Shown here: piece after piece, positions 2 through 19,339 of the stretch
How the letters are laid out: each line of letters starts with the position of its first letter
Numbering within the stretch: position 1 is the stretch's first letter
Assembly (NCBI GenBank): GCA_964580055.1
Contig: CAZOJI010000011.1
Coordinates: 34,759-98,758 of the forward strand
Direction of reading: 5' to 3'
Origin: an uncultured Gemmatimonadaceae bacterium
GTDB taxonomy: Bacteria; Gemmatimonadota; Gemmatimonadetes; Gemmatimonadales; GWC2-71-9
Length of the DNA stretch: 64,000 nt
The notes under the pieces: model-generated
Told to the model about the DNA's origin: nothing
Databases searched by the model: none
What the model saw: the letters and a program-made list of their open reading frames with translations, nothing else
Program-made: the position numbers and the translations under genes

Positions 2-832
2 ATGACCATCTCGCAGGCCATTCTGTGGGCGGCGTCGAACGTCGAGCCCGAGAAGAAGCCCTCTGAGATCATGGCTTGCGATCCCTACTTCATCGGCTCG
101 CACTCCGGTGCTTCCGGTGCTTGGGTTTCCGGTCCCGAAGATCTGCAGACCGCAGAGACCAAGGACGAGTATTTCTGGGGTTACGCCAACATGACGACCG
201 TGCGGGGCATGTTCGCCGCTGGCGACGCCTCCGGTGCTTCCAGTCACAAGTTCTCTTCGGGCTCGTTCACCGAGGGCCGCATCGCAGCCAAGGCGGCGTG
301 CGCATACATCGTTGACAACAACGAGGCCCCGAACGTAGATCAGGCTCAGGTCGATGAATTGACCAAGTTGATTCTCCAGCCGCTGGACACTTACGAAGAG
401 TTCAAGGGTGCGACAACGGATCCCGAGATCAACCCGAACTACATTCGGCCGAAACAGTTCATGTACCGCATGCAGAAGATCATGGACGAGTATTCGGGCG
501 GCGTTTCGGCACAATTCATGACCAGCGACAAGCTCCTCGAGAAGGGCATGGAGCTGCTCGACTTCCTGAGGGAAGACGCGACCAAACAGGCCGCGAGCAG
601 TCTTCACGAGTTGATGCGTTGCTGGGAGAACGTCCACCGTATGTACCAGGCCGATGCGCATATGCGCTCGATTCTGTTCCGTGAAGAGACCCGTTGGCCT
701 GGTTATTACTTCAGAGCGGACAAGCCGAAGATCGACAACGACAATTGGCTTGCGTTCTGTAACTGCAAGTACGACAGGAACACGGGTGAATGGGAGATGA
801 TGAAGAAGCCCGTTAAGTACATCACCGTCTGA
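2..832 (+). CDS. aprA: Adenylylsulfate (APS) reductase alpha subunit, C-terminal 276 aa (5' end outside window)
   Basis: ORF is open to the window edge. The C-terminal flavoprotein stretches FAAGDASGASSHKFSSGSFTEGR and REETRWPGYYFRADKP look like AprA. qmoABC and sat follow on the same strand. Confidence 0.9.
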   Translation: MTISQAILWAASNVEPEKKPSEIMACDPYFIGSHSGASGAWVSGPEDLQTAETKDEYFWGYANMTTVRGMFAAGDASGASSHKFSSGSFTEGRIAAKAACAYIVDNNEAPNVDQAQVDELTKLILQPLDTYEEFKGATTDPEINPNYIRPKQFMYRMQKIMDEYSGGVSAQFMTSDKLLEKGMELLDFLREDATKQAASSLHELMRCWENVHRMYQADAHMRSILFREETRWPGYYFRADKPKIDNDNWLAFCNCKYDRNTGEWEMMKKPVKYITV

Positions 833-854
833 TTGGTTGTTGGAAATCGGGACT

Positions 855-881
855 CTCGGGCGTCGCTCCTTGACGCCCGAG
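855..881 (+). terminator. GC-rich stem-loop 23 nt after the aprA stop (possible partial terminator or mRNA stabiliser)
   Basis: Perfect 10-bp stem CTCGGGCGTC / GACGCCCGAG with a 7-nt loop. No U-tract follows, so it is not a canonical intrinsic terminator. Confidence 0.35.
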
Positions 882-1000
882 GTCCCACTCCTGGACTCCA
901 CAGAAACTTCTTGTCACCGAAAGGCACACGGACTTTCGCGGCTGGGCGAGGGACGGTTTCCAGGCCGGCATGATTGGGTGATGATCGACCGAGGAATCCA

Positions 1001-1285
1001 ATGAAAGAAATGTCTCGAACCTGCCCACATTGTAGCACACGTCTCAGTAAGTGGCGCGTGCCAGCTGAAGCCTCCTGGGAAGAGGAGTTCTTCTACGTCT
1101 GTTTCAACGATGGCTGCTCGTACTATCAAAACGGCTGGAAGTGGATGGAGGAGCAGTTCAGTCAACGTGCATCCTACAGATACGCGGTCAATCCGACTAC
1201 CGGTGCCGCTTCGCCACTTCCTGTCTGGTCCGACACGGCAACAAGGGAGATGATCGTAGATGAGAGTGAAGGGAGCAACGAATGA
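1001..1285 (+). CDS. Small 4-Cys zinc-ribbon protein of unknown function
   Basis: Track ORF 974..1285. ATG 1001 is preferred because GAGGAA lies 4 nt upstream. It has CPHC ... CFNDGC cysteine pairs. Its stop overlaps the next start (ATGA at 1282-1285). Confidence 0.6.
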   Translation: MKEMSRTCPHCSTRLSKWRVPAEASWEEEFFYVCFNDGCSYYQNGWKWMEEQFSQRASYRYAVNPTTGAASPLPVWSDTATREMIVDESEGSNE

Positions 1286-2178
1286 GTGACGACAATCGCT
1301 TCTCGGCTCCCGGGTCCACGTTGAGGAATCTGGAGGAGAAGTTGTTGGAGGACAGCCCCAGGTTGGGCTTGGACGACAAGTTCAAGTTCGGTTGTCACCC
1401 AGGGGTTTCGTGTTTCAATCGCTGTTGCCACGATGTGAACATCTTTCTCTCTCCCTACGACGTGCTTCGCCTCAAGAATCGTCTGGGCATGACGTCAACC
1501 GAATTCCTGGATAGATACGCTCTGTTGCCGGTTCAAAAGGAGATGAAGACTCCTGTTGTCGTTCTTCGGATGAACGACGACGAGACGAAATCGTGTCCGT
1601 TTCTCAATGATGATGGGTGCAGCGTGTATACTGACAGGCCGTGGCCATGTCGCATGTATCCGCTGGGCATGGCAGCTCAGAAGGACACACCTGACGGGTG
1701 GGGCGGGGAGAAGTTCTATTTCCTCTTGCAGGAAGAGGCGTGCAAGGGTTTTGGCGAGGATACGGAGTGGACGGTGCGCCAATGGCTCGACGACCAAGGC
1801 ATCTATGAGTACGACCGCTGGGGCGACGGCTACAAGGAACTGACATTGCACCAGTTCTTCGAAAGTGACGAGGCCGCGCTCTCGCCTGAAAAGATGCACA
1901 TGCTGTTCACAGCCTGCTACGATCTGGACAGGTTCCGGGAGTTCGTGTTCGAGAGCACGCTGCTGGACCGCTTCGAGATCGATGAGGAGTTCGTCGAAGC
2001 CATGCGCACGGATGATGAAGAACTGCTGAGGTTCGGATACCTGTGGCTGCAGTTCAGCCTGTTTGGTGAGAAAACGATAAGAGTGAAGGCCGAGGTCGCC
2101 GAGGCTTTCAAAGGAAGCCTCGACAAGCGGCAAGTGTTCGACAAGGAGTCTGCCGACGAAGGCTCCCGAAAAGGATAG
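1282..2178 (+). CDS. CxxCxxCC-family (YkgJ/UPF0153-like) putative Zn/Fe-S protein
   Basis: Has the motifs GVSCFNRCCHD and CPFLNDDGCSVYTDRPWPCRMYP typical of the PF03692-type family. Overlaps the upstream ORF in ATGA fashion and ends 3 nt before qmoA. Confidence 0.7.
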   Translation: MSDDNRFSAPGSTLRNLEEKLLEDSPRLGLDDKFKFGCHPGVSCFNRCCHDVNIFLSPYDVLRLKNRLGMTSTEFLDRYALLPVQKEMKTPVVVLRMNDDETKSCPFLNDDGCSVYTDRPWPCRMYPLGMAAQKDTPDGWGGEKFYFLLQEEACKGFGEDTEWTVRQWLDDQGIYEYDRWGDGYKELTLHQFFESDEAALSPEKMHMLFTACYDLDRFREFVFESTLLDRFEIDEEFVEAMRTDDEELLRFGYLWLQFSLFGEKTIRVKAEVAEAFKGSLDKRQVFDKESADEGSRKG

Positions 2179-2181
2179 ATC

Positions 2182-3450
2182 ATGAGCGGAAATGGCAAAC
2201 GGGGTACGATACTCGTTGTCGGTGGTGGAATAAGCGGAATTACGGCTGCAATAGAGGCGTCCGAAGCTGGCAAGGACGTCGTACTGGTGGACAAGAACCC
2301 GTACTTGGGTGGACGTGTCGCCCAGATGAAACAGTACTTCCCAAAGATGTGCCCACCTTCCTGCGGTCTGGAGATCAACCTGCGGCGCATAAGGACCAGT
2401 TCCAGCATACGTTGTCTGACGCTGTCCGAAGTCGAGAAAGTCGCCGGGGAGGCGGGGCGTTATCAGGTCACCGTCAAACGACAGCCACGGCGGGTGAACA
2501 GTAAATGCACCGCGTGCGGTGAATGCGTTGAAGTCTGCCCTGAGGAGCGTCCCAGCGAGTTCGACTGCGGAATGGGGACCACCAAAGCGATCTACCTGCC
2601 ATACAGGATGGCCTACCCCGTCCAGTACGTAATCGATGAAGCTGCATGTCTCGGTCCCGAGTGTGGCAAGTGTGTGGAGGCTTGTCCATACGACGCCATC
2701 GATCTCGAGATGAGTCCGGACACCATCGAGGTCGAAGCGGAGGCAGTGATCTGGGCTACCGGCTGGGACCAACCGGACGCCACGAAGATCGAGGGGCTCG
2801 GCTTTGGCAAGTACAAGAATGTCATAACCAACCTAATGATGGAGCGGCTGGCTGCGGAGAACGGGCCTACCGGAGGCAAGATCAAGAGGCCGTCCGATGA
2901 CAAGGAACCCGATGCCGTCGCGTTCGTACAGTGCGCAGGTTCTCGCGATGAGAATTACCTCAAGCATTGTTCCGGCGTGTGTTGCATGGCATCGCTCAAG
3001 CAGACGCAATATGTCCGGGAGCAGTATCCCGAGGCAGATATCTTCGTTTTCTACATCGACATTCGCGCACCTGGTAGACTCGAAGACTACTACCAGATGT
3101 GTCAGGAGGATGAAAAACTCCATCTGATCAAAGGAAAGGTGGCGAAGATATCGGAAGACTCTGCGAATGGCGATGTGATCGTGGAAGCAGAGGATACCAT
3201 GACTGGTGAGCGTATCGAGCAAAAGGTCAATCTGGTCGTGCTCGCAACCGGCCTCGTGCCCGCACCTGCACCGGTTAACTTCGAGGTCGATGGTGGCCTC
3301 CAGAGAGATGAGCACGGGTTCCTCACCAGCGAACAATCCCTCACAGGTATGGTCGGCGCCGGATGTGCGAAGCGTCCAGTGGACGTAGCTGTCTGTTTGA
3401 GGGACGCTACGAACGCCGCCTTGAAAGCCTTGCAGAGTGGTGTGGAGTAG
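2182..3450 (+). CDS. qmoA: Quinone-interacting membrane-bound oxidoreductase subunit A (HdrA-like flavoprotein)
   Basis: N-terminal FAD fold VVGGGISGITAA. Ferredoxin motifs CTACGECVEVCP and CGKCVEACP. HdrA-like FVQCAGSRD and CSGVCC stretches. Sits immediately before qmoB and qmoC. Confidence 0.9.
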   Translation: MSGNGKRGTILVVGGGISGITAAIEASEAGKDVVLVDKNPYLGGRVAQMKQYFPKMCPPSCGLEINLRRIRTSSSIRCLTLSEVEKVAGEAGRYQVTVKRQPRRVNSKCTACGECVEVCPEERPSEFDCGMGTTKAIYLPYRMAYPVQYVIDEAACLGPECGKCVEACPYDAIDLEMSPDTIEVEAEAVIWATGWDQPDATKIEGLGFGKYKNVITNLMMERLAAENGPTGGKIKRPSDDKEPDAVAFVQCAGSRDENYLKHCSGVCCMASLKQTQYVREQYPEADIFVFYIDIRAPGRLEDYYQMCQEDEKLHLIKGKVAKISEDSANGDVIVEAEDTMTGERIEQKVNLVVLATGLVPAPAPVNFEVDGGLQRDEHGFLTSEQSLTGMVGAGCAKRPVDVAVCLRDATNAALKALQSGVE

Positions 3451-3454
3451 ACAA

Positions 3455-5707
3455 GTGGAGAATAAAGAGAAGAAACTCGCGGTTTGGATCTGTCAGGGTT
3501 GCGATATCGGCAAGTCCGTCGACGTGGAAGCCTTGGAGAAAATCGCTACTGACGAATACAATGTCGACACCTGCCGTACGCACGATTGTGCCTGCGGTGA
3601 GGAAGCGGTTGAGCTGATCAAGAAAGATGTCCAGGATGGAGTCAATAGCCTCGTGGTAGCAGGCTGTTCGCCGCGCTTCAACACAGACACTTTCGCGTTC
3701 GACGACTGTTTCACGGAGCGCGTGAATCTGCGCGAGATGGTCGTGTGGAGCCATCCATCCGACGACGAAGACACGCAGATGCTCGCCGAAGACTACCTTC
3801 GGATAGGTATCGTGCGCGCGCAGAAGGCCAACACGCCCGTGCCGTTCGAAGCCGAAATCAACAAGACGATTTTGGTGGTTGGTGGTGGGCCTGCAGGAAT
3901 GAGTGCTGCATTGCAAGCAGCCAAAGCCGGTTACGAGGTGGTGCTGGTAGAGAAGGAGAAGGAGCTGGGTGGCTGGCCTCTGAAATTCGCCAAGTTGTAC
4001 CCACACAAGCCGCCTTATCGTGACCTCGATCCAATCGACGTGGATTCGCCAATTCCGGAAATCGAGGCGAACGAGCGGATTACCGTGCACACGTCATCGG
4101 TGATCGGGGAGATCACCGGCCAACCCGGCCAGTTCGACGTCTCGGTGAAGCGCAACGGTTCGGCCACGGAATTGCGCGTTGGAGCAATCGTTCAGGCAAC
4201 CGGATGGAAGCCTTACGACGCTTCCAAGCTGGGTCATCTTGGGTACGGGTGCAAGAACGTGATTACGAACGTCGAGATGGAAGAGTTGGCAGCCAGCGGC
4301 AAGATAACTCGACCTTCCGACGGAAAGCCGGCCCGCAAGATTGCTTTCGTTCAGTGCGCCGGATCGCGCGACAAGGAGCATCTGCCGTACTGCTCCGGCG
4401 TGTGCTGCAGAGTGACGCTGAAACAGGCGCTCTTGGCCCGGGAACTGGATGACGAGACCCAGGCATTCGTTCTCTACAAAGACATCAGGTCGCCAGGGCA
4501 ATACGAGGACTTCTACCGCAGGGCCCAAGAGGATTCGGAGATCTTCTTCACCAAGGGTGAAGTGGTTTCTGTGAGTGAAGCCGACAACAACGACCTCATC
4601 GTCGCGATGGAGGACACGCTTCTTGGCGATAACATCCAGATAGAAGCTGACCTGGTAGTGCTTGCGACTGGAATGGTGCCGAACGCCGCTGACGGAGAGG
4701 CGATACGTCAGCTCGAAGATGCCAAGCGCACAATAGCGAAGAATGAGCCGGGCGCGCAGCTCGAAGGGGCCAAAGAGACGTACGAGAGACTCAAGGATCA
4801 CGAGGGATCGGAGATCTTGAACCTGAAGTACCGGCAGGGACCCGATCTTCCGGCGTTGAAATATGAATTCCCCGACTCTCACTTCATCTGTTTCCCGTAC
4901 GAAACGCGGCGCACCGGCATCTATGCGGCGGGCGGAGTCCGCGCCCCCAGCGACAGCCTGTACAGCAAGGAAGATGGTGCGGGGGCGGCTCTCAAAGCCA
5001 TTCAGTGCGTGGAACTCGCGACGCGTGGTATGGCGATGCATCCTCGATGGGAAGACCAGTCGTACCCTGACTTTGCCTTACAGCGGTGCACCAGATGCAA
5101 ACGTTGCACTGAGGAGTGCCCGTTCGGTACCATAGATGAGGATGCGGAGGGCACCCCGGTGCCCAACCTCACACGGTGTCGGCGTTGCGGTATCTGTCTG
5201 GGCGCTTGTCCCGAGCGAATTATCTCTTTCAAGGACTACTCGATTGACATCGTGTCTTCGATGATCAAGGCCGTAGAGATTCCAGATGAGTTCGAGGAAA
5301 AACCGCGTCTCCTAGGTTTGTTGTGCGAAAACGATGCTTATCCCGCGTTGGACACGGCCGGCCTCAACCGCATCCAACACAGTGCTTTCATACGCATCAT
5401 CCCGGTTCGGTGTTTAGGATCGGTCAACCTGGTCTGGATCGCTGATGCTCTATCGAGAGGTTTCGACGGTATTCTATTGATCGGATGCAAATCAGGCGAC
5501 GACTATCAGTGTCATTTCATTCGCGGAAGTGAATTGATGGGAACGCGGGGCAAGAACGTTCAGGAGAAGCTTCAACAACTAGCACTGGAAGAGGAACGAG
5601 TCCGCCTCGAGCAACTCAGCATCGATGAGGTGAAGAGGCTGCCTGAGATCATCGATGAGTTCGCGGAACAGATCGACGAGATCGGGTTGAACCCGTTCAA
5701 GATGTAA
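3455..5707 (+). CDS. qmoB: Qmo subunit B (HdrA-like flavoprotein with C-terminal MvhD-like domain)
   Basis: Has VVGGGPAGMSAAL, FVQCAGSRD, CTRCKRCTEECP and CRRCGICLGACP, plus a C-terminal Cys-containing domain. GTG 3455 is preferred over the track start 3437 because GGAG lies 7 nt upstream and it clears the qmoA stop. Confidence 0.88.
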   Translation: MENKEKKLAVWICQGCDIGKSVDVEALEKIATDEYNVDTCRTHDCACGEEAVELIKKDVQDGVNSLVVAGCSPRFNTDTFAFDDCFTERVNLREMVVWSHPSDDEDTQMLAEDYLRIGIVRAQKANTPVPFEAEINKTILVVGGGPAGMSAALQAAKAGYEVVLVEKEKELGGWPLKFAKLYPHKPPYRDLDPIDVDSPIPEIEANERITVHTSSVIGEITGQPGQFDVSVKRNGSATELRVGAIVQATGWKPYDASKLGHLGYGCKNVITNVEMEELAASGKITRPSDGKPARKIAFVQCAGSRDKEHLPYCSGVCCRVTLKQALLARELDDETQAFVLYKDIRSPGQYEDFYRRAQEDSEIFFTKGEVVSVSEADNNDLIVAMEDTLLGDNIQIEADLVVLATGMVPNAADGEAIRQLEDAKRTIAKNEPGAQLEGAKETYERLKDHEGSEILNLKYRQGPDLPALKYEFPDSHFICFPYETRRTGIYAAGGVRAPSDSLYSKEDGAGAALKAIQCVELATRGMAMHPRWEDQSYPDFALQRCTRCKRCTEECPFGTIDEDAEGTPVPNLTRCRRCGICLGACPERIISFKDYSIDIVSSMIKAVEIPDEFEEKPRLLGLLCENDAYPALDTAGLNRIQHSAFIRIIPVRCLGSVNLVWIADALSRGFDGILLIGCKSGDDYQCHFIRGSELMGTRGKNVQEKLQQLALEEERVRLEQLSIDEVKRLPEIIDEFAEQIDEIGLNPFKM

Positions 5708-5742: not shown

Positions 5743-6966
5743 ATGGCCGATGCCATAGTTCTGAAACCGGACAGGGAATTCCTGAAGACCATCCTCGCTG
5801 AGGGTGGTGCGGACATGAAGAAGTGCGTCCAGTGCGCGACATGTTCGGTCGTGTGTGAGCTTTCGACCGGACGCACGCCATTTCCCCGCAAGGAAATGAT
5901 ATGGGCGCAGTGGGGGCTCAAGGATCGGCTCGTTTCGGATCCGGATATTTGGCAGTGTCATCACTGCAACGATTGTTCTGTGCACTGCATTCGCGGGGCT
6001 CGGCCGGCCGATCTCTTGGCGGCGGTGCGCCACCAAGCCGTGAAGTACTATGCGGTTCCGAGGTTCTTTGCTGAATGGATGGATAAGGCCAAGACGCTTC
6101 CGCTCATGTTGTTGATAGCTGTGGCTTTGGTGGGGCTCGGCTTGGCTATCCGCGGTCCACTGGAGGCGGTGCTCGGTGTTGGAGAGACGCACCACGAGTT
6201 CTATGCTGCATTTTTTCCGCACTGGCTGTTGATTATCTACTTCACGACAATCACGGGTTTGGCTGCGCTGGCGGTCGTAATAGGTGCCGTGAAGTTCTGG
6301 CGAGCGATGAAAGCCGCAGATCGGGCGTCGGGCGCCGGCCCGCCTACGTTGGGCATAGTGCCTAGCATTTTTATTTCGCTGAAGTCGATTGTTGTGCATG
6401 ACAGATTTGCCAAATGCACGAGTCACGTTTCTCGCAGAGTGGCCCATTTGCTGGCGTTCTACGGTTTCGTTGTTTTGCTCGTGGTTACCGTATGGGCTGT
6501 AATGGACCTGTACCTGTTCCCGGTTATGGGAATTGAGTCGAGGTATCCGTTCGATCTCCTTCATCCGTTGAAGATCATCGCGAATGTAGGTGCGGTTCTG
6601 CTCATCTACGGTTGCGTTAGGGCGATTCTCGATCGCCGGCGCGAGCTTGAGGAAGCACCCATATCCACTGTTTTTGATTGGACTTTCTTGTGGCTGCTTC
6701 TTTTTGTAGGTGTTTCGGGGGTACTCACAGAGGCACTCAGATTCGTCGGTGAGCCCGCCGACGTCGCATGGCTGACATACACCGCGTACACCATCTACTT
6801 CATGCATCTGGTGGGTGTAGTGGGTCTGTTGGTGTATTTGCCGTATTCCAAGTTCGCTCACCTCGTCTACAGAACGGTCGCGATGGTTTACTCTGAGCAT
6901 ACCGGCCGGAACGTGAGCGACTCGAAGAGTTTGGTCCCGGTGGGCAAAGGACCCAGTAGGCAGTGA
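5743..6966 (+). CDS. qmoC: Qmo subunit C (HdrC-like FeS domain fused to HdrE-like membrane haem-b domain)
   Basis: N-terminal CVQCATCSVVCE and CHHCNDCSVHC motifs are followed by about six hydrophobic helices. Position after qmoAB. Confidence 0.88.
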   Translation: MADAIVLKPDREFLKTILAEGGADMKKCVQCATCSVVCELSTGRTPFPRKEMIWAQWGLKDRLVSDPDIWQCHHCNDCSVHCIRGARPADLLAAVRHQAVKYYAVPRFFAEWMDKAKTLPLMLLIAVALVGLGLAIRGPLEAVLGVGETHHEFYAAFFPHWLLIIYFTTITGLAALAVVIGAVKFWRAMKAADRASGAGPPTLGIVPSIFISLKSIVVHDRFAKCTSHVSRRVAHLLAFYGFVVLLVVTVWAVMDLYLFPVMGIESRYPFDLLHPLKIIANVGAVLLIYGCVRAILDRRRELEEAPISTVFDWTFLWLLLFVGVSGVLTEALRFVGEPADVAWLTYTAYTIYFMHLVGVVGLLVYLPYSKFAHLVYRTVAMVYSEHTGRNVSDSKSLVPVGKGPSRQ

Positions 6967-8740: not shown

Positions 8741-9058
8741 ATGGCAGAGGTTGAGCTTGGTGGCAAGATGATGGAAATCGATGAGGACGGCTTCATCCAG
8801 GATCCGGATCAGTGGGACGAGGCCGTTGCCGCCGATTTGGCTAAGACGGAAGGCGTCGACGAACTCACTGATGATCACTGGAAGCTCGTGAACTACTTGA
8901 GAGAGTACTACCTCGAGTTCAACATGGCACCGATGATCCGCAAACTTTGTAAGGCAACTGGTTTCAAGCTCAAGGAGATCTACGATTTGTTCCCGAGTGG
9001 CCCGGCGAAAGGTGCCTGTAAGGTGGCAGGTCTTCCAAAGCCGACTGGCTGCGTATGA
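8741..9058 (+). CDS. dsrC: Dissimilatory sulfite reductase gamma protein DsrC
   Basis: 105 aa. The C-terminal arm CKVAGLPKPTGCV carries the two conserved Cys 10 residues apart, the second one penultimate. GGAGGAG RBS. Confidence 0.95.
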   Translation: MAEVELGGKMMEIDEDGFIQDPDQWDEAVAADLAKTEGVDELTDDHWKLVNYLREYYLEFNMAPMIRKLCKATGFKLKEIYDLFPSGPAKGACKVAGLPKPTGCV

Positions 9059-9063
9059 TTGAA

Positions 9064-9091
9064 ACGGCGCGGGCTCGAAAACCTGCGCCGT
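9064..9091 (+). terminator. Stem-loop 5 nt after the dsrC stop (putative terminator or attenuator)
   Basis: ACGGCGCGGG / CCTGCGCCGT forms a 10-bp stem with one G-U pair and an 8-nt loop. Only a weak U-rich tail follows. Confidence 0.4.
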
Positions 9092-9196
9092 CGTTCAGAA
9101 ATGGTTCTGTACTGATTGGAACCGCGACAGGCTGTAGGCCGATTGCTCGATTGGTGGGGCGGCTCGGTCCGTACGGTGACGGTAGGGAGATGAGTG

Positions 9197-9754
9197 ATGA
9201 CGTTCAGGGAGGCGCTCGAAGGAAAGAAAGAGCAGATCGTAGCAAGGTGGCTCGATGCAGCGCTCTCCCTGTACGCCCGAGATGCTTCTGCCGCTTTCGC
9301 TCGACAGAAGGATCGTTTTGCCAATCCGGTCGGCCACAGTCTGCGTGAAGGTACGCTGGCGATCTTCGAGGCACTTCAGGACGACACTGGCGCCACGACG
9401 ATCCGCCAGCATCTGGTCGAAATCATCAAGATCAGGGCGGTCCAGCAGTTTACGGCTTCCGAGGCCTTGAGCTTCTTCTTCACGCTCAAGGACATTGTGA
9501 GAGAGGAAGTCTCGAACGATCTTCGCGGAGCAAGCGAGCTGCAGGACTGTGTGATGTTCGAGAGAAGGGTCGACGAGGTCGCCTTGGCTGCATTCGACGT
9601 GTATGCTGAGTGCCGCGAAAAGGTGTTCGAATTGAGAGGCAATGAGATGAAGCGCAGGGTTTCTTGGATCGTCGACAAACTGAACAAGCGTGGCAACGGT
9701 CTGGAGCCGTTTGACACCGATCGAGAACGAGAAGAAGAGAATCCGAAGGCGTGA
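9197..9754 (+). CDS. Globin-like/RsbRD_N-type domain protein in the position occupied by dsrT (immediately upstream of dsrM)
   Basis: 185 aa and soluble. The N-terminal pattern EQIVARWLDAALSLY and DRFANPVGHSL resembles RsbR-N-type sensor domains. It ends 22 nt before dsrM. The DsrT assignment is tentative. Confidence 0.6.
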   Translation: MTFREALEGKKEQIVARWLDAALSLYARDASAAFARQKDRFANPVGHSLREGTLAIFEALQDDTGATTIRQHLVEIIKIRAVQQFTASEALSFFFTLKDIVREEVSNDLRGASELQDCVMFERRVDEVALAAFDVYAECREKVFELRGNEMKRRVSWIVDKLNKRGNGLEPFDTDREREEENPKA

Positions 9755-9776
9755 ACGTACTACGAGAGGATCTCCG

Positions 9777-10766
9777 ATGAACGTAGTTCTTTCCCTGGCA
9801 TTCGTAGGCGGCCTTTTTCTGATAGGCATGCTTGGCGGAGTGCCGGGATTGGGGTGGCTGTTTGGTGTCGTGCTGCCTTACGCGGCGCTTGCGTTGTTCC
9901 TCGGCGGTATGGTCTACCGTGTTCTGAAGTGGGCGAACGTCCCCGTTCCGTTCCGCATTCCAACTACCTGCGGCCAGCAAAAGACGCTACCCTGGATAAG
10001 ACACGACAAGATCGAGAATCCACACAACTCTCTGAACGTTTTGGGCAGGATGGCATTGGAGATCTTGTTCTTCAGGTCACTGCTCAGGAACACGAAGTCG
10101 AAGTTGGTGGAAGGAGGTAGGGTCGTCTACGGGACCGATCTCTGGCTCTGGATTGCAGCTTTGGCTATGCACTGGTCACTGCTGTTCATCTTGATCAGAC
10201 ACCTTCGACTGATGGTGTCTCCGGTACCGGGTTTCGTTACGTTGATGGAGAGGATCGACGGTTTCCTCGAGATCGGGCTCCCGGTGTTCTTCATCACGAC
10301 GATACTGTTCCTAGCCGCATTGACGTTCTTGTTGTTCCGGAGATTCGTGACCCCCCAGCTGCGTTACATATCTCTGGTGAACGACTATGTGCCATTGTTC
10401 CTGCTTCTCGGTATCGGGATTACGGGATTCTGGATGAGGCATTTGGGCAAGACAGATGTTCCGGCAATCAAGGAATTGACCTTGGGCCTGACACACTTTT
10501 CGCCGGTCGTTCCAGAGACGATCAGCCCGGTTTTCTACGGGCACCTTTTCCTGGTCTCTGTTTTGTTGGCTTACATCCCGTTCGGCAAGATCACGCACAT
10601 GGCCGGCGTATTCCTCAGCCCGACGAGAAGCATGGCCAACAACAACCGGGCAGTTAGGCACATCAACCCCTGGGACTACCCTGTGAAACTGCATCCGTAC
10701 GACGAGTACGAAGATGAACTCAGGGACAAGATGAAGGCGGCCGGGATTCCGGTCGAGAAGGAATAG
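9777..10766 (+). CDS. dsrM: DsrM, NarI-like dihaem membrane subunit
   Basis: Polytopic membrane protein directly preceding dsrK. ATG 9777 follows a GAGAGGA RBS. The track start 9690 overlaps the upstream gene. Confidence 0.88.
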   Translation: MNVVLSLAFVGGLFLIGMLGGVPGLGWLFGVVLPYAALALFLGGMVYRVLKWANVPVPFRIPTTCGQQKTLPWIRHDKIENPHNSLNVLGRMALEILFFRSLLRNTKSKLVEGGRVVYGTDLWLWIAALAMHWSLLFILIRHLRLMVSPVPGFVTLMERIDGFLEIGLPVFFITTILFLAALTFLLFRRFVTPQLRYISLVNDYVPLFLLLGIGITGFWMRHLGKTDVPAIKELTLGLTHFSPVVPETISPVFYGHLFLVSVLLAYIPFGKITHMAGVFLSPTRSMANNNRAVRHINPWDYPVKLHPYDEYEDELRDKMKAAGIPVEKE

Positions 10767-10768
10767 CG

Positions 10769-12430
10769 ATGTCGACGCCAGACGAACCTGATTATTACAA
10801 GAAGGAAGACCTCCTCAATATCAGTACCGAGCCGCCGCCGACAGGGTGGATGGAAACGCCTGTGGACTTCAGGCGGGGCACCTACATCTATCCCGGCAAG
10901 GCGAAGAACCTGAAGGTGGTCGACCTGCCCAACCCGAGGGAATGGGCGGTTACCGACGCTGACTGGAAATTGCAGGACGATTGGAAGAAGATCGTCCTGG
11001 ATGGGATGGCTGAACGTCTCAAGAGATTTCGGTCTTTCAGGATCTTCATGGATACCTGTGTCCGTTGTGGCGCATGCGCCGACAAGTGCCACTTCTTCAT
11101 CGGAAGCGGGGACCCCAAGAACATGCCCGTTCTCAGGGCGGAGCTGCTCAGGTCGATCTATAGGAAGGATTTCACGGCTTTGGGCAGAGTCTTCGGCAAG
11201 CTCGCCGGAGGGCGCGAACTCACGGAGGACGTAATCAAGGAGTGGTTCTACTACTTCTACCAATGCACCGAATGCCGCCGGTGCTCCGTCTTCTGTCCCT
11301 ACGGTATCGATACCGCCGAAGTCACGATGATCGGTCGCGAGCTGCTCGGGCTGCTGGGGCTATACGTCAACTGGGTCATCGAGCCAGTAGCCAACTGCTT
11401 CCGGCTGGGCAATCACCTCGCCATCCAACCGCACGGGCTGGTGGACACGCTGGATTTCATGGCCGATGACATAGAGGAGAGCACGGGCATACGCGTGGAC
11501 ATCCCCATCAACAAGAAGGGTGCGGAGATCTTGTTCGTCACTCCGTCCGGCGACTTCGTGGCCGACCCTGGGATCTACACGTGCATGGCCTACATGCTGC
11601 TGTTCCACGAACTCGGCATCGACTACACGTGGAGCACCTACGCTTCGGACGGCGGCAACTTCGGGCTGTTCACGTCCCACGAGATGATGAAACGTCTCAA
11701 CAACAAGATCTACGCGGAAGCCAAGCGACTCGGCGTCAAATGGATCTTGGGTGGCGAGTGCGGTCATATGTGGCGGGTGATCAATCAGTACATGGATACG
11801 ATGAACGGCCCCGCCGATTTCCTGGAGGTTCCCAAGTCGCCGATAACCGGGACGGTGTTCGAGAACGCTCGGTCCACCAAGATGATACACTTGATGGAGT
11901 TCACCGCCGACCTGATAAGGCACGGTAAGCTCAACATCGATCCGGCCAGGAACGATCACATTCGGGTGACACTGCACGATTCGTGTAATCCCGCGCGCGC
12001 CATGGGCATCTTCGAAGAGCCCCGTTATGTGATCAAGAGCGTGTGCAATAACTATTTCGAAATGCCGGAGAATACCATACGTGAGCAGACGTTCTGTTGT
12101 GGCGGAGGCGCCGGTTTGGGAACCGACGAGAATATGGAGATGCGCCTGCGCGGGGGGCTACCGAGGGGCAGCGCCGTGAAGTACGTGCAGGATAAACACG
12201 GAGTAGATTTCCTCGCCGCAATGTGTGCGATCGACAGGGCGACGCTGGTTACGGTGTGCGACTACTGGGCCCCCGGAGTCAAAGTCACCGGCATCAGCGA
12301 GCTCGTAGCCAACGCCATGACGTTTACGGGACAGAAGAAGCGCACCGAGAATTTGCGCCTGGAGGAGATTCCCGCATGGGTAGCGGAAGCCGAAGAAGAG
12401 GAGAGCAATGGAGGCGGCACCGATGAGTGA
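10769..12430 (+). CDS. dsrK: DsrK, HdrD-like catalytic FeS subunit with CCG domain
   Basis: Has CVRCGACADKCHFF, CTECRRCSVFCPYG and CCGGGAGLG (CCG) motifs. Starts 2 nt after dsrM. Confidence 0.93.
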   Translation: MSTPDEPDYYKKEDLLNISTEPPPTGWMETPVDFRRGTYIYPGKAKNLKVVDLPNPREWAVTDADWKLQDDWKKIVLDGMAERLKRFRSFRIFMDTCVRCGACADKCHFFIGSGDPKNMPVLRAELLRSIYRKDFTALGRVFGKLAGGRELTEDVIKEWFYYFYQCTECRRCSVFCPYGIDTAEVTMIGRELLGLLGLYVNWVIEPVANCFRLGNHLAIQPHGLVDTLDFMADDIEESTGIRVDIPINKKGAEILFVTPSGDFVADPGIYTCMAYMLLFHELGIDYTWSTYASDGGNFGLFTSHEMMKRLNNKIYAEAKRLGVKWILGGECGHMWRVINQYMDTMNGPADFLEVPKSPITGTVFENARSTKMIHLMEFTADLIRHGKLNIDPARNDHIRVTLHDSCNPARAMGIFEEPRYVIKSVCNNYFEMPENTIREQTFCCGGGAGLGTDENMEMRLRGGLPRGSAVKYVQDKHGVDFLAAMCAIDRATLVTVCDYWAPGVKVTGISELVANAMTFTGQKKRTENLRLEEIPAWVAEAEEEESNGGGTDE

Positions 12431-12803
12431 CAAGGGCAAGATCATTGGCGGGTTGGTCGTCTTTCTCGTTTTGGTGACCTACCCACTGTGGCATACCGTT
12501 GCTGCAGGAGGAGATGCGACAATGCCCGAACTCGAGTACCCGGTTTCCGCCACCGAGTGCATCGAAGACACCGAGTACATGCGTGCAAGCCACATAGATA
12601 TGCTGAATGACTGGCGCAACGCCTTGGTTAGAGATGGTGAAGTAGAGTACACATCATCTTCGGGTGAACAGTATACGATGAGTCTTACTGGCACGTGCAT
12701 AGATTGTCATGACAACAAGGAAGCCTTCTGCGACAGGTGTCACGACTTCTCCAACGTGACACCTACATGCTGGGACTGCCACGTCGTGCCGGGGGGGAAC
12801 TGA
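12423..12803 (+). CDS. dsrJ: DsrJ, periplasmic trihaem cytochrome c
   Basis: Three CxxCH motifs (CIDCH, CDRCH, CWDCH) and an N-terminal membrane anchor. The start is ambiguous: 12408 or 12423, the latter overlapping the dsrK stop. Confidence 0.88.
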   Translation: MSDKGKIIGGLVVFLVLVTYPLWHTVAAGGDATMPELEYPVSATECIEDTEYMRASHIDMLNDWRNALVRDGEVEYTSSSGEQYTMSLTGTCIDCHDNKEAFCDRCHDFSNVTPTCWDCHVVPGGN

Positions 12804-12806
12804 GCG

Positions 12807-13613
12807 ATGGATGAGAGTAGACGCGGCTTCCTGAAGAAGGCCGGCAAGACGGCGCTCGGGCTTGGTTGGGGCTTGCCGCTTCTGAACACGGCGTGCTCAG
12901 AGCCGGGAGAACACGATCACCATATTCCGCTGCGCTCAGACAACCAGTGGGCGATGGTTGTCGATGTTGAGAAATGCCGGCAGGAAGAGGTGAGGCGAGC
13001 CTGTGTAGAGGCTTGCAGGTTGGCGCACAATGTCCCGTCGATTCCCGAGCCGGACGATGAGATCGACTGGATATGGGAAGAGGAGTACAAACACGTATTC
13101 CCCGAGCAGGTGCATGATCATACACCCGAGTCGCTGGGGGACGCGCCGGTGTTGGTGCTGTGCAACCACTGCACGAATCCGCCCTGCGTCAGGGTTTGTC
13201 CCACTCAAGCGACCTGGAAGCGGGAGACGGATGGAATCGTAATGATGGACATGCACCGCTGCATCGGTTGCCGCTACTGTATGGCTGCCTGCCCTTACCA
13301 GGCCCGCAGCTTCAATTGGCGCGACCCTCGCCCGTTCATCGATACAGACGCGGACGGAGATTTCAGGTCCGACTATCCCACTCGTACAAAGGGGGTCGTC
13401 GAGAAATGCAACTTCTGCGCGGAGCGACTCCGCATCGGACTGCTGCCCGCATGTGTCGAGGCGGCGAATTCGGTTGAGGGTGTTGAAGGGGCTATGGCGT
13501 TCGGCGATCTGACCGATCCGAACTCGGACGTGACGCGGCTCCTTGATGAGAATCACACCATCAGCAGGCGCGTCGGCCTAGGGACCGGCCCCAACGTCTA
13601 TTACATCGTCTAA
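12807..13613 (+). CDS. dsrO: DsrO, periplasmic ferredoxin-like FeS subunit (Tat signal)
   Basis: Twin-arginine leader SRRGFLKKAG. Cluster motifs CNHCTNPPCVRVCP, CIGCRYCMAACP and CNFCAERL. Confidence 0.9.
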   Translation: MDESRRGFLKKAGKTALGLGWGLPLLNTACSEPGEHDHHIPLRSDNQWAMVVDVEKCRQEEVRRACVEACRLAHNVPSIPEPDDEIDWIWEEEYKHVFPEQVHDHTPESLGDAPVLVLCNHCTNPPCVRVCPTQATWKRETDGIVMMDMHRCIGCRYCMAACPYQARSFNWRDPRPFIDTDADGDFRSDYPTRTKGVVEKCNFCAERLRIGLLPACVEAANSVEGVEGAMAFGDLTDPNSDVTRLLDENHTISRRVGLGTGPNVYYIV

Positions 13614-13656
13614 CGCCTTTCAGGGTTAGAATTGTGAGAACCGAGAGGTAGAACAT

Positions 13657-14817
13657 ATGCTGCAGGATGCATTCCGAGGGGGACGGCGATATTGGGCACT
13701 GGTGGGCTTCTGGGGTGTGCTGATCGTCATCGGGGTTAGCACTTGGGCCTACCAGCTGAGTGAGGGATTGCATATCACCGCAATGACCCAGCAGATCACC
13801 TGGGGGATGTACATTGCCCAACTCACCTTCATGGTAGGTATCGCAGCGTCAGCCGTAATGGTAGTGCTGCCATATTATCTGCATGACTACAAGGCCTTCG
13901 GCAAAATGGTGATCATCGGCGAGAGCCTGGCTGTGTCGTCGGTGCTGATGTGCATGCTGTTCGTGTTCGTCGATTTGGGCCAGCCGTCCCGCGGTGCGAA
14001 CATCATACTGCATCCCACGCCCAATTCGGTGATGTTCTGGGATATGTTGGTGCTGTCCGGATATCTGTTACTGAACCTCGTCATTGGTGCGGTTACGTTC
14101 GAGGCTGAGCGCAAGGGAGTGCCGCCACCGAAATGGGTCAAGCCGCTCATATACCTTTCCATTCCCTGGGCGGTGAGCATTCACACGGTAACGGCGTTTC
14201 TCTATTCCGGGTTGGAGGCGCGCACCTTTTGGATGACGGCGATCCTCGCTCCACGATTCCTTGCCTCGGCGTTCGCTACCGGACCCAGCCTGCTGATCTT
14301 ACTGGCCCTGATTCTCAGGCGCTTCACGACCTTTGACGCCGGAAAAGAGGCGATTCAGAAGCTGGCAATGATCGTGGCATACGCTGTCGCGGTCAACCTG
14401 TTCTTCCTGCTGGTCGAGCTGTTCACTGTTGTCTACAGCAGCATCCCGCATCACACGGATGGTTTCCGCTATATGTTCTTCGGGCTTGAGGGTAAGAACA
14501 CTATTGCACCGGCGATGTGGGTTGGTCAGGCGATCGGACTGTTCTGTTTGGTAGCGTTGTGGATACCCAAAGTGCGCGCAAACGAGAAATTTCTCGCGGT
14601 GCTCGCAGTGGGAGTAATACTGTCGCTTTGGCTAGAGAAGGGTGTGGCCATGGTGGTTGTCGGTTTCATCCCGGCACCTCTCGGGGAGGTGAGCGAATAC
14701 ATTCCCACGCTCCCCGAGTATTTGATTACAATTGGAGTTTATTCCATTGGATTCTTGCTGCTAACGATGTTCTACAAGATCATAACGACCGTAAGAGAGA
14801 GATTGGGACCGGCATAG
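13657..14817 (+). CDS. dsrP: DsrP, NrfD/PsrC-like integral membrane subunit
   Basis: About 10 hydrophobic helices. Position after dsrO. GAGAGG RBS. Confidence 0.88.
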   Translation: MLQDAFRGGRRYWALVGFWGVLIVIGVSTWAYQLSEGLHITAMTQQITWGMYIAQLTFMVGIAASAVMVVLPYYLHDYKAFGKMVIIGESLAVSSVLMCMLFVFVDLGQPSRGANIILHPTPNSVMFWDMLVLSGYLLLNLVIGAVTFEAERKGVPPPKWVKPLIYLSIPWAVSIHTVTAFLYSGLEARTFWMTAILAPRFLASAFATGPSLLILLALILRRFTTFDAGKEAIQKLAMIVAYAVAVNLFFLLVELFTVVYSSIPHHTDGFRYMFFGLEGKNTIAPAMWVGQAIGLFCLVALWIPKVRANEKFLAVLAVGVILSLWLEKGVAMVVVGFIPAPLGEVSEYIPTLPEYLITIGVYSIGFLLLTMFYKIITTVRERLGPA

Positions 14818-14824
14818 GAATAGC

Positions 14825-14850
14825 CACACGCGGCTTCCTGTGTGTTTTTT
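14825..14850 (+). terminator. Weak hairpin plus T6 tract after dsrP
   Basis: CACAC / GTGTG 5-bp stem (plus one G-U pair) followed by TTTTTT at 14845-14850. The stem is short, so support is weak. Confidence 0.3.
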
Positions 14851-14865
14851 GATAGATGTGGTGTA

Positions 14866-14885
14866 TGGAAGTGAGTGGAAGTAAG
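14866..14885 (+). promoter_or_regulatory. Tandem direct repeat TGGAAGTGAG/TGGAAGTAAG upstream of dsrA
   Basis: Two adjacent 10-mers, 9 of 10 identical, about 52 nt upstream of the dsrA ATG. Candidate regulator site, function unknown. Confidence 0.2.
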
Positions 14886-14937
14886 GAGTAAAGCAGACAT
14901 TAACTAACGCCATCATTCCAAGCGGAGAGGAAACAAC

Positions 14938-16155
14938 ATGGCAGATTCAGGTAACAATGGCACTCCGTTGCTGGACGAACTGGAAAAGGGACCCTGGCCC
15001 AGCTTCGTTACGCAGATCAAGGAGGCAGCCGAAACGAAGGAGTCGTCCGCGGCTCTGTTGAGATTGCTGGAGCGTTCGTACGGTGAGAAGATCGGCCACT
15101 GGAAGCACGGCGGCATCGTGGGTGTGATGGGTTACGGTGGCGGCGTCATCGGCCGGTACAACGATCTGCCGGAGGATTTCCCGGAGATCGCCCATTTCCA
15201 CACGATGCGCATCAACATGCCGACGGGTTGGTTCTACACCTCAGATGCGTTGCGCACGGTGTGTGACATCTGGGACAAACATGGTTCTGGTCTGACCAAC
15301 ATGCACGGATCGACCGGTGACATCATTCTGCTCGGCACGTCCACGGACGAATTGGAGCCTACGTTCCAAGAGTTGGCGCAGAACGGTTTCGATATTGGTG
15401 GCTCGGGCTCCGACCTGCGGACGCCGAGCGCGTGCAATGGCATGGCGCGGTGTGAGTGGGCATGCTACGACACACTGGCTGCCTGTTACGACTTGACTCA
15501 GGAGTTCCAGGACGAGCTGCATCGGCCCGCTTTCCCATACAAGTTCAAGTTCAAGTTTGCTGGATGCCCGAACGACTGCGTTGCGTCGGTGGCGAGAGCC
15601 GATCTGTCGGTCATCGGAACCTGGCGTGACGAGATCCAGATCGATCAGGCAGAGGTGAAGGCTGCTGAAGAAGCTGGACTGGACATACTCAGGGACGTTT
15701 GCTTCAACTGTCCGACGAGGTGCATCGAGTGGGACGGCGAAAAGCTCGAGATCGACGATTCGAACTGCGTGAAGTGCATGCACTGCATCAACGTGATGCC
15801 GAAAGCTCTGCGCCCCGGCAAGGACAGGGGTGCGACGATCATGCTCGGCTCCAAGGCGCCGATTGTGGAAGGTGCGATGCTGTCATCGGTTATCGTTCCG
15901 TTCATGAAGATGGAGCCTCCCTTTGAGGAACTCAAAGACCTGATCGAGAGGATCTGGGATTTCTGGGCTGAGAACGGCAAGAACCGGGAACGCTGTGGCG
16001 AGTTGATGCAGCGCATCGGCCTCGGGAATTTCCTGGAAGAGATCGAGGTGGATCCGATTCCCCAAATGGTTGCACATCCCAGGGACAATCCTTTCATCTT
16101 CTTCGAGGATTACTATGAAGAAGGCGATGAGGATGAGGAAGAAGATGAAGAATAG
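14938..16155 (+). CDS. dsrA: Dissimilatory sulfite reductase alpha subunit
   Basis: Sirohaem/FeS motifs [11 protein letters not shown] and [11 protein letters not shown]. Ferredoxin insert CFNCPTRC / CVKCMHC. Unusual poly-acidic C-terminus [12 protein letters not shown]. Confidence 0.95.
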
Positions 16156-16220
16156 AGCTGCTGGGCGAGACTCTCGGCATGCGAACATGAGACTAATTGT
16201 ACCAATGGGGAGATAGAGCG

Positions 16221-17300
16221 ATGGCAGTGTCAAAGGACAGGATAACGGATATCGGACCTCCGCATTATGAGAAGTTCCTGCATCCAGTTATAAAGAAGAA
16301 CTACGGGCAGTGGAAGTACCATGAGATCTTGAAGCCTGGCGTGATGGTGCATGTCGCCGAATCCGGCGACAAGATCTTCACGGTGCGAACGTCTTCTCCG
16401 AGGCTGCTCTCCACCACACGGATCCGCAAGTTTGCCGAATTGGCGGACAAATACTGCGACGGTCACCTGCGTTTCACCAGTAGAAACAACGTGGAATTTC
16501 TACTCGCGAGTGACGAGAAGATCGACGATCTTATCGCCGAATTGAAGGATCTGGGCCACTCAGTGGGTGGTATCGGCAACGCGATTTCCAATATCGTGCA
16601 CACGCAAGGTTGGGTGCACTGCCACTCGGCAGCGACGGACGCGTCCGGCGTCGTGAAGGCTGTGATGGATGACTTGCACGAACACTTTGCGTCGAACGAC
16701 GTGCCCGGAAAGCTCCGCATCGCCCTGGCATGTTGTCTCAACATGTGCGGCGCCGTACACTGCTCGGACATCGCGATACTCGGAGTGCACCGCAGGCCAC
16801 CGCGGGCTGACCACGCGACTCTCAACAAGCTGTGCGAGATTCCGAATGTGGTTGCCTCGTGTCCTACGGCGGCTATCAGGCCGGCCACGGTGGAGGGGCA
16901 TCCTTCAGTCGAGATTGACGAAGATCTTTGCATGTTCTGCGCGAACTGCTTCACGGTATGTCCGTCTCTACCCATGGCCGACGCGTTGAACGACGGTGTT
17001 TCGATCTGGGTGGGCGGCAAAGTATCGAACGCCCGTTCCGAGCCTACCTTCTCGAAGCTGGCTATACCGTGGCTGCCGAACACCCCGCCGCGTTGGCCTG
17101 AAGTGACAGAAGCGGTGCGGAATATCGTAGACGTGTGGGCGAACAACGCTCGCAAGTTCGAGCGGATGGGCGAATTCATCAACCGTATCGGTTGGCCGAG
17201 GTTCTTTGAGATGACCGGCATCGAGTTCCAGAAGGAACACATCGATGATTTCAAGCACGCGGGACTGACTTACAAGCGGTCCGCGCAGCTCAGACACTAG
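16221..17300 (+). CDS. dsrB: Dissimilatory sulfite reductase beta subunit
   Basis: Has [28 protein letters not shown] and ferredoxin [12 protein letters not shown] motifs. ATG 16221 is preferred over the track start 16197. Confidence 0.95.
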
Positions 17301-17310
17301 GAGGTAACAT

Positions 17311-17568
17311 ATGGCTGTCACGCCGGCAGAAATTGCGGACGCCATGTACGAGATGGTCAAGGAGTATCAGGGCAAAAAGAAGTTCAAGGCCCAGGACTTG
17401 ACCAAGGCAATGATGCAGAAGTTTGCCGACGAAGGAGTCGACAAGAAGCAGTGCAAACTCGCAATTCGTGAGTTGATGGACTCCGGAAGGTGCGTCTACA
17501 CGTACTTCGGCGGCAGCTTCATTGAACTCCCTCACAAAGAGGGAGCTGCTGAAGGAGCCGACGGCTAG
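17311..17568 (+). CDS. dsrD: DsrD, small winged-helix protein
   Basis: 85 aa with the KKKFKAQDL lysine-rich motif and YTYFGGS. Starts 10 nt after dsrB. Confidence 0.88.
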   Translation: MAVTPAEIADAMYEMVKEYQGKKKFKAQDLTKAMMQKFADEGVDKKQCKLAIRELMDSGRCVYTYFGGSFIELPHKEGAAEGADG

Positions 17569-17582
17569 AAGTAGCCGTCGGC
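17557..17582 (+). terminator. Perfect 11-bp hairpin enclosing the dsrD stop codon
   Basis: GCCGACGGCTA / TAGCCGTCGGC with a 4-nt loop. The TAG stop at 17566-17568 lies within the left arm and loop. No U-tract. Confidence 0.35.
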
Positions 17583-17596
17583 CATCAAAATAATTC

Positions 17597-17612
17597 ACGG
17601 GCGGAAGCCCGT
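17597..17612 (+). terminator. Second small hairpin (GGAA tetraloop) between dsrD and the dsrL-like gene
   Basis: ACGGGC GGAA GCCCGT, a 6-bp stem. Confidence 0.25.
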
Positions 17613-19335: not shown

Positions 19336-19339
19336 AGCA

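Follow-up and report, generated by a model that had tools for sequence, protein, structure and literature searches.

We analysed a 64,000-nucleotide (nt) stretch of DNA from an uncultured Gemmatimonadaceae bacterium (contig CAZOJI010000011.1, positions 34,759 to 98,758 of the forward strand), hereafter called the window, in which two small genes, ORF1 and ORF2 (ORF, open reading frame), lie between the adenosine 5'-phosphosulfate (APS) reductase gene aprA and qmoA. The window covers only the 3' part of aprA, which encodes the alpha subunit and is the upstream anchor of the pair (positions 2-832, forward strand; NCBIfam TIGR02061, 1.5e-115, model positions 342-614); aprB and the 5' half of aprA lie outside it. 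The 1349 nt from aprA to qmoA (833-2181) hold one hairpin and two genes, all on the forward strand. ORF1 (1001-1285; ATG at 1001, TGA at 1283-1285) encodes a 94-amino-acid (aa) acidic Cys4 zinc-ribbon protein, and ORF2 (1282-2178; ATG at 1282, TAG at 2176-2178) encodes a 298-aa acidic YkgJ-type cysteine-cluster protein. The two genes share an ATGA stop/start overlap (1282-1285), and the ATG of qmoA at 2182 follows the ORF2 stop after a gap of 3 nt. Shine-Dalgarno-like motifs are found 5-6 nt before each start, namely GAGGA (991-995) for ORF1, AGGGAG (1270-1275) for ORF2 and AAGGA (2171-2175) for qmoA. A longer ORF1 starting from TTG at 974 is possible, but its homologues are 94 aa long, which supports ATG 1001 as the start. 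Downstream on the same strand follow qmoA (2182-3450), whose domain matches indicate an HdrA-like FAD/Fe-S protein, qmoB (3437-5707), which overlaps qmoA by 14 nt and encodes HdrA-like domains plus a FlpD/MvhD domain, qmoC (5743-6966; NCBIfam NF038018, 379.6 bits against a cutoff of 300), and then sat and dsrC. An initial annotation of this DNA had described a 94-aa ORF with CPHC...CFNDGC and a 298-aa ORF with GVSCFNRCCHD and CPFLNDDGCSVYTDRPWPCRMYP, joined by the ATGA overlap and ending 3 nt before the qmoA ATG. Reading the sequence bore out each of these features in ORF1 and ORF2, and the model and domain matches for AprA, QmoA, QmoB and QmoC agreed with the flanking genes that it had named.

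Related loci were gathered as the best 80 of 238 matching stretches (one genome per GTDB species) plus four from an exact-protein look-up, with neighbouring genes assigned by tblastn. The best 80 stretches all come from metagenome-assembled genomes (MAGs): about 50 from Gemmatimonadota (the closest 82-84% identical), 19 from Planctomycetota, 4 from 'delta'/Desulfobacterota, one each from Latescibacterota, Spirochaetales and Chitinivibrionia, and 4 unclassified. ORF1 lies directly upstream of ORF2 in all 82 assessable loci and, in all 82, inside a sulfur-metabolism operon. aprA precedes ORF1 in 74 of 75 assessable loci, and in the lone exception (L009) the scaffold runs into a gap of Ns 70 nt before ORF1. 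Among the 82 assessable loci of the close family, no copy of the pair without aprBA was found. qmoA follows ORF2 directly in 74 of 83 loci. aprA-ORF1-ORF2-qmoA-qmoB is the standard five-gene arrangement in this large lineage. The initial annotation had spoken of extra genes inserted between aprA and qmoA, a misleading word where this arrangement is the norm. aprA, qmoA, qmoB and qmoC are all present and co-oriented in the window, as the canonical aprBA-qmoABC cluster requires, but qmoA does not directly follow aprA, either here or in 74 related loci.

The remaining loci differ on the donor side. In three of them (L001, L025 and L026), the genes after aprBA-ORF1-ORF2 encode a second YkgJ protein, a 56%-identical paralogue, then a cytochrome b of NarI type and a CCG protein resembling HdrD/DsrK. 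The donor module is not directly adjacent to ORF2 in L012, L015 and L022; a QmoC-like match lies ~1.7 kb downstream in the first two, and L022 has a lone QmoC-like gene 1.6 kb further downstream and dsrMK upstream. In L029 ORF2 is followed by dsrC, and in L002 and L003 no donor genes were found anywhere near ORF2. Since the pair stays where qmoABC is replaced or not adjacent, it is tied to AprBA and not specifically to Qmo.

A search with the YkgJ paralogue recovered a large sister clade, which includes Zixibacteria and an ORF2 homologue (CAJ31182.1, 'uncultured sulfate-reducing bacterium') deposited with the 2005 Wadden Sea fosmids and annotated in that year as a 'conserved hypothetical protein (UPF0153)'. 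The abstract of Mussmann et al. from 2005 reportedly mentions 'novel, conserved hypothetical proteins'. Three long contigs of this clade carry sat-aprB-aprA, a zinc-ribbon gene, a YkgJ gene, and NarI-like and HdrD/DsrK-like genes in this order, with a MerR-family gene between the YkgJ and NarI-like genes in L086. Identity to the window is 49% for the zinc-ribbon protein (ORF1), 56% for YkgJ (ORF2) and 75% for AprA. Across no fewer than two divergent clades and four downstream arrangements, the position of the pair does not change. The NarI-like cytochrome b and HdrD/DsrK-like CCG genes, which stand in place of qmoABC after the YkgJ gene (L001, 8959-12391; L025, L026 and L085-L087), look like an alternative Apr donor module, and upstream of sat these loci repeatedly carry a divergently transcribed QmoC-like gene, TauE and a cytidylate-kinase-like gene.

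Further out, linkage to apr or qmo persists for three of the five cluster representatives that were looked up at 42-51% identity. L089 has aprA followed by zinc-ribbon and YkgJ genes (51% identity), and L088 has two tandem YkgJ genes followed by qmoA (43%). At ~40-44% identity the apr/qmo linkage of ORF2 relatives dissolves. One relative lies directly after a radical S-adenosylmethionine (SAM) gene (L095, 2861-4849), another between NikR/CbiMQO and FeoAB (L094), and a third, the 690-aa P0342, is fused to a radical SAM-SPASM enzyme; the relatives tied to radical SAM (P0342 and L095) are ~37-44% identical to ORF2, a hint that in other contexts radical SAM chemistry goes together with this YkgJ branch. 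In a low-GC organism (L092, 250-1347, with L093), a YkgJ relative of 42% identity has CstA after it and, before it, an unrelated 87-aa ORF rich in CxC/CxxC, so a small Cys-rich partner may be general to the ORF2 subfamily. The 508-aa P0263 was considered as a natural ORF1-ORF2 fusion and rejected: in an error-prone assembly, frameshifts let ORF1, ORF2 and the start of qmoA read through as one protein, which calls for caution with Rosetta-stone arguments in this family. The homologue clusters examined contained no cultured organism, although cultured carriers may exist.

Judged by substitution patterns, ORF1 and ORF2 are real genes under strong purifying selection. In six pairwise comparisons with related loci, the proportion of nonsynonymous differences (pN) was 0.08-0.22 for ORF1 plus ORF2, and 0.11-0.22 for ORF1 alone, against a proportion of synonymous differences (pS) of 0.64-0.89 in both cases, with synonymous sites saturated. 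QmoA and QmoB showed the same pattern. Across ~80 loci, median identity to the window was 64.3% for ORF1, 67.7% for ORF2, 67.7% for QmoA, 71.6% for QmoB, 55.8% for QmoC and 81.2% for AprA; by these measures ORF1 and ORF2 evolve at the rate of QmoA and are equally constrained. AprA itself is 76-92% identical among Gemmatimonadota, Planctomycetota, Desulfobacterota and other MAGs, and the AprA of the window is nearer to that of A. fulgidus (1JNR) than to that of D. gigas (3GYX).

The 168-nt spacer between aprA and ORF1 holds a GC-rich stem-loop of 16 pairs with one bulge and no U tract (849-886, forward strand), for which RNAfold gave -32.3 kcal/mol over positions 842-891. A comparable hairpin follows aprA in all 79 of 79 loci, with differing sequences and a median of -35.9 kcal/mol, whereas equal-sized control segments within ORF2 and aprA gave about -19 kcal/mol. 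A terminator scan between aprA and ORF1 found no terminator-like site, and Rfam gave no match on 700-2300, hairpin included. The hairpin is probably a stabilizer of the mRNA 3' end or a partial attenuator, parting highly expressed aprBA from the genes downstream. A 4-nt overlap joins ORF1 to ORF2 in 63 of 82 related loci and ORF2 to qmoA in 49 of 72, the start codons in these counts having been chosen automatically. The ATGA overlap of ORF1 and ORF2 would couple their translation, and the overlaps linking ORF1, ORF2 and qmoA place the pair in the donor-side expression unit. ORF1, ORF2, qmoA and qmoB would then be made together at a lower, mutually matched level than aprBA. Together, the hairpin after aprA and the chained overlaps suggest stoichiometry with the donor module rather than with the abundant AprBA.

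ORF1 matches Pfam Ogr_Delta (PF04606) with 31.2 bits (cutoff 26.3) over residues 7-51, so the zinc-ribbon assignment of the initial annotation stands, as does its CxxCxxCC/YkgJ assignment of ORF2, which matches Pfam PF03692 with 36.9 bits (cutoff 23) over residues 43-134. The cysteines of ORF1 lie in CPHC (C8 and C11) and CFNDGC (C34 and C39), with the spacing CX2CX22CX4C. There are 166 homologues in the database, the best 120 of which are 63-100% identical over their full length, and 27 columns of the family are invariant, the four cysteines among them. Outside the cysteines, a Trp-rich core and a C-terminal PVWSxxATREMIV motif are conserved, and it is in this Trp-rich region and C-terminal tail, beyond the zinc knuckles, that conservation is strongest. 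The family has an isoelectric point (pI) of 4.2-5.5 and lacks membrane or export features. The AlphaFold2 (AF2) model of ORF1 is confident, with a predicted local distance difference test score (pLDDT) of 84.5, and has a predicted zinc ribbon, a helix (40-53) and a beta hairpin (58-75). ORF1 had no match in NCBIfam, a Foldseek search of the PDB with its model found nothing at E <= 0.001, and the family profile found nothing among PDB sequences at E <= 1. Ogr/Delta proteins are late-gene activators of P2/P4-like phages, which ORF1 resembles in the Pfam match above threshold and the Cys4 spacing. However, ORF1 is acidic rather than basic, has no PHROGs family at E <= 0.01 and no prophage context, and carries ~45 extra, highly conserved residues relative to the 47-position Ogr/Delta model. 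The acidity, the lack of a PHROGs match and the lack of a prophage therefore suggest that the two probably share a zinc-ribbon scaffold only.

For ORF2, 2714 homologues are in the database, the best 120 being 63-100% identical over their full length, and all those among the matches listed carry a precomputed PF03692 match. Its N-terminal motif, C38-x5-C44-x3-C48-C49 (CX5CX3CC), differs in spacing from a literal CxxCxxCC. Eight cysteines are invariant in the close family (C38, C44, C48, C49, C105, C113, C123 and C154), and 108-112 of the 112 sequences in a wider alignment (110 representatives of clusters at 35-52% identity, ORF2 and one type-2 member) retain them. A distal block, G112-C113..Y116.D118-R119-P120..C123-R124.Y126-P127, follows the family pattern G-C-x2-Y-x-D-R-P-x2-C-R-x-Y-P. 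Both the N-terminal motif and the distal block are invariant in a 24-sequence alignment, Y126 being only nearly so in a 75-sequence alignment. The family has a pI of 4.6-5.2 and is without membrane or export features. The AF2 model of ORF2 (pLDDT 68.7; predicted template modelling score, pTM, 0.67) is of moderate quality overall but confident in a C-terminal helical domain (residues 200-270). The C-terminal 143 aa had no Pfam match, the family profile found nothing among PDB sequences at E <= 1, and no SAM-binding or other catalytic signature was detected in ORF2. There was likewise no match at E <= 0.1 to the HdrB/HdrD-type CCG domain (Pfam PF02754), which is present in the adjoining DsrK-like proteins of type-2 loci.

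Neither ORF1 nor ORF2 has a close relative of known structure or function. The only biochemically studied PF03692 protein is FliB of Salmonella, a SAM-dependent flagellin lysine N-methyltransferase with eight conserved cysteines, in which a CX4CX3CC motif binds an oxygen-sensitive, redox-active [4Fe-4S] cluster (PMC8598068). ORF2 shares with FliB the Pfam family, the C-Xn-C-X3-CC motif (CX5CX3CC in ORF2) and the number of conserved cysteines. In contrast, the sole NCBIfam match of ORF2, to the FliB equivalog model NF038110, falls far below threshold (13 bits against a cutoff of 85, E = 0.056), the match spanning only ORF2 residues 41-117 and model positions 11-85 of 373; its C-terminal domain is different, and its neighbours in all loci are apr, qmo, sat and dsr genes, with no flagellar context.

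Among the steps of dissimilatory sulfate reduction, the electron route to APS reductase is understood least. As a donor for APS reduction, menaquinol on its own is thermodynamically marginal. Electron transfer from Qmo to AprAB has not been seen in vitro and a third partner has been proposed, and no partner genes are co-localized with sat-aprBA-qmoABC in cultured sulfate-reducing bacteria (PMC3333476); the electron donor of APS reductase was still called unclear in 2023 (PMC10553843). Two candidate genes, ORF1 and ORF2, sit exactly at the apr/donor junction, where partner genes are missing in cultured organisms. They lie beside apr/qmo genes in every related locus examined, purifying selection on them is strong and no unrelated function could be assigned to them. 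Full-text searches found no paper tying YkgJ/UPF0153/CxxCxxCC or Ogr-like proteins to apr/qmo, although a passing mention as 'conserved hypothetical' is possible. The initial annotation had offered additional subunits, an electron-entry module or assembly factors for an AprAB-Qmo complex. This set of hypotheses remains the right one, but the invariant partner is aprBA and not Qmo. ORF1 and ORF2 are probably helper proteins of APS reductase that have gone unrecognized.

As to how they help, we tentatively suggest, as the most economical reading, that the pair may act as a soluble Zn/Fe-S adaptor between a membrane quinol-oxidizing module and AprBA. By analogy with FliB, ORF2 would be a soluble cytoplasmic protein binding at least one [4Fe-4S] cluster through CX5CX3CC, and its four other invariant cysteines might serve as a second site for metal or as a redox-active thiol site. 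ORF1 would be its zinc-ribbon partner, made in equimolar amount. Docked on AprBA, the two proteins would pass electrons from the membrane module to AprB, this module being QmoABC here and a DsrMK/HdrDE-like complex in other lineages. A variable donor side, a pair that stays at the apr/donor junction and its coupling into qmoA fit such an adaptor, as does the third partner postulated for Qmo and AprAB (PMC3333476).

Several points weigh against the adaptor. Its mechanism is drawn from gene order and cysteine motifs. QmoA of Desulfovibrio binds AprAB directly (PMC3333476), and model organisms reduce APS without ORF1 or ORF2, so APS reduction does not always need the pair. The cluster of FliB serves catalysis and not electron relay (PMC8598068). 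Foldseek of the ORF2 model found no structural neighbour in the PDB at E <= 0.001, and the model is weak precisely at the Cys-rich segments, although poorly defined loops of this kind are expected in a model built without cofactors. In L090 and L091 (46% identity to ORF2), the order is aprBA-YkgJ-qmoABC-sat without a zinc-ribbon gene; the gap between aprA and the YkgJ gene is 146 nt and no ORF1 homologue was found on the 13-15 kb stretches examined, so some lineages can dispense with the zinc-ribbon partner. Moreover, relatives at ~40% identity stand beside or are fused to radical SAM or metal-homeostasis genes, so the fold is not specific to apr.

A more far-reaching version of the adaptor, which we regard as doubtful, would make the pair the 'third partner' that has long been sought for APS reduction, among a large share of the sulfate/sulfur metabolizers in the environment. 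The Zn/Fe-S module would then turn the outputs of different membrane complexes, flavin/Fe-S based for QmoABC and thiol/disulfide based for DsrMK/HdrDE-like complexes, into a one-electron input for AprB. This conversion might follow a cluster-plus-cysteine mechanism as in ferredoxin:thioredoxin reductase or HdrB, and AprBA would be a four-subunit enzyme in the carrier lineages.

Among the alternatives to an adaptor, the one that survives best is a maturation or modification factor, a possible role for the pair and nearly as likely as the adaptor. ORF2 would be a FliB-type Fe-S enzyme, possibly SAM-dependent, needed in catalytic amounts only, that modifies AprA or AprB post-translationally or aids assembly of their cofactors, and ORF1 would be its specificity or scaffold subunit or its substrate. 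FliB is a [4Fe-4S]- and SAM-dependent lysine methyltransferase with eight conserved cysteines, as many as ORF2 has, but the similarity is confined to the Cys domain, ORF2 has no SAM-binding or catalytic signature, and its C-terminal domain belongs to no family. That the pair stays behind aprBA with every donor module, and also in loci without an adjacent one, fits a factor serving AprBA itself; however, the AprBA of cultured organisms matures without genes of the ORF1/ORF2 type. From the hairpin behind aprA, expression below that of AprBA is to be expected, whereas the 4-nt coupling into qmoA (49 of 72 loci) and an evolutionary rate like that of QmoA suggest a partner in stoichiometry with the donor module. 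Relatives in the subfamily that are fused to or next to radical SAM enzymes (P0342 and L095), and one paired with a different small Cys-rich ORF (L092), also fit a maturation factor.

It is improbable that the two proteins are redox-responsive regulators, with ORF1 as an Ogr/Delta-type activator of sulfate-reduction genes and ORF2 as an Fe-S sensor controlling it. An Fe-S protein coupled to a zinc finger would be a plausible sensor-effector layout, ORF1 is above the Ogr_Delta gathering threshold with CX2CX22CX4C, and some of its homologues are named 'ogr/Delta-like zinc finger family protein' by NCBI. On the other hand, the ORF1 family is acidic throughout, an unusual property in an activator that binds DNA and an indirect argument against DNA binding, its conservation peaks outside the zinc knuckles, and there are neither PHROGs matches nor a prophage context. 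The genes are also operon-internal and translationally coupled to structural genes, and in one apr-linked clade the YkgJ protein occurs but the zinc finger does not. That ORF1 and ORF2 are hitch-hikers unrelated to APS reduction, travelling with a laterally transferred apr-qmo island, is scarcely credible: the cluster does look laterally mobile (AprA 76-92% identical among several phyla) and ~40%-identity relatives occur in unrelated contexts, but the position is invariant in two divergent clades with at least four downstream architectures, overlaps couple the genes to neighbours on both sides, constraint equals that of QmoA, and no copy without aprBA occurs among the 82 assessable close-family loci.

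The conservation of the pair is solid, whereas its mechanism is inferential. The pair is found in hundreds of metagenomic lineages with the full pathway, in Gemmatimonadota, Planctomycetota, Zixibacteria, Latescibacterota and some Desulfobacterota. If ORF1 and ORF2 are subunits or adaptors, the Desulfovibrio-based model would not be complete for much of the sulfur cycle in the environment, and two small, soluble proteins that can be expressed would open the question of the electron donor to experiment. As maturation factors, they would point to a step in the modification or assembly of a key enzyme that has not been known so far. Under either role, the pair is a practical genomic marker for this apr lineage and would provide a first physiological context for an uncharacterized branch of the large YkgJ family.

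Beyond qmoABC, sat in the related loci L005-L084 also follows qmoC and falls into two lineages, ~80-88% and ~41-47% identical to the Sat of the window, so sat has been replaced in situ while the remaining cluster kept its order. In the window, qmoABC-sat is followed by a run of dissimilatory genes on one strand (8741-21772) that starts with dsrC and continues with dsrM (9690-10766), dsrK (10769-12430), a triheme DsrJ-like ORF (about 12400-12800), dsrO (12807-13613), dsrP (13657-14817), dsrA (14938-16155), dsrB (16197-17300), a GltD/DsrL-like gene (17653-19335), a CobB/CobQ-like dsrN (19526-20782) and TauE (20783-21772). With apr, qmo, sat, dsrC, dsrMKJOP, dsrAB and the DsrL-like and dsrN-like genes in one run, the window holds a complete dissimilatory sulfur 'supercluster', which resembles the 'metabolic island' that Mussmann et al. 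are said to have put forward in 2005. An 85-aa ORF (17311-17565) in the gap between dsrB and the DsrL-like gene, the expected site of dsrD, had no Pfam DsrD match and only two matches at chance level. Further downstream, a 670-aa ORF (22807-24819) joins a ferrochelatase domain to the N-terminal domain of glutamyl-tRNA reductase; such a fusion of two enzymes of the tetrapyrrole pathway is unusual, and it lies next to the siroheme-dependent dsr genes.

The locus can be compared with several known systems. The sat-aprBA-qmoABC cluster in its canonical form, as in cultured sulfate reducers and green sulfur bacteria (DVU0846-0851 in D. vulgaris), has the same core genes in the same order as the window, and the same presumed task of delivering menaquinol-derived electrons to AprBA (PMC3333476). 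In the canonical cluster, however, aprA is followed directly by qmoA, whereas in the window two conserved genes stand between them; unlike that cluster, ORF1 and ORF2 also accompany aprBA in lineages with a non-Qmo module. The apr-qmo operon of D. vulgaris comprises six genes, aprBA, qmoABC and DVU0851, the last being, like ORF1 and ORF2, an extra uncharacterized gene co-transcribed with apr-qmo. DVU0851 lies after qmoC and is described as having no homologues outside Desulfovibrio, whereas the unrelated ORF1 and ORF2 span several phyla, and as a Desulfovibrio-specific gene it was rejected as their equivalent.

Other donor modules for APS reductase include aprBA-qmoAB-hdrCB in Gram-positive sulfate reducers, dsrMK/hdrDE-like genes near apr in Caldivirga and AprM in sulfur oxidizers; these variants are reportedly described by Pereira et al. 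in 2011 and by Meyer and Kuever in 2007. Both in these variants and in the loci studied here, with QmoABC, a DsrMK-like module or a lone QmoC-like gene, the donor side of AprBA is modular and replaceable. To our knowledge, a zinc-ribbon and YkgJ pair beside aprA is part of none of the described variants. The locus is a variant of sat-aprBA-qmoABC with two added constant components, drawn from known but functionally opaque Pfam families.

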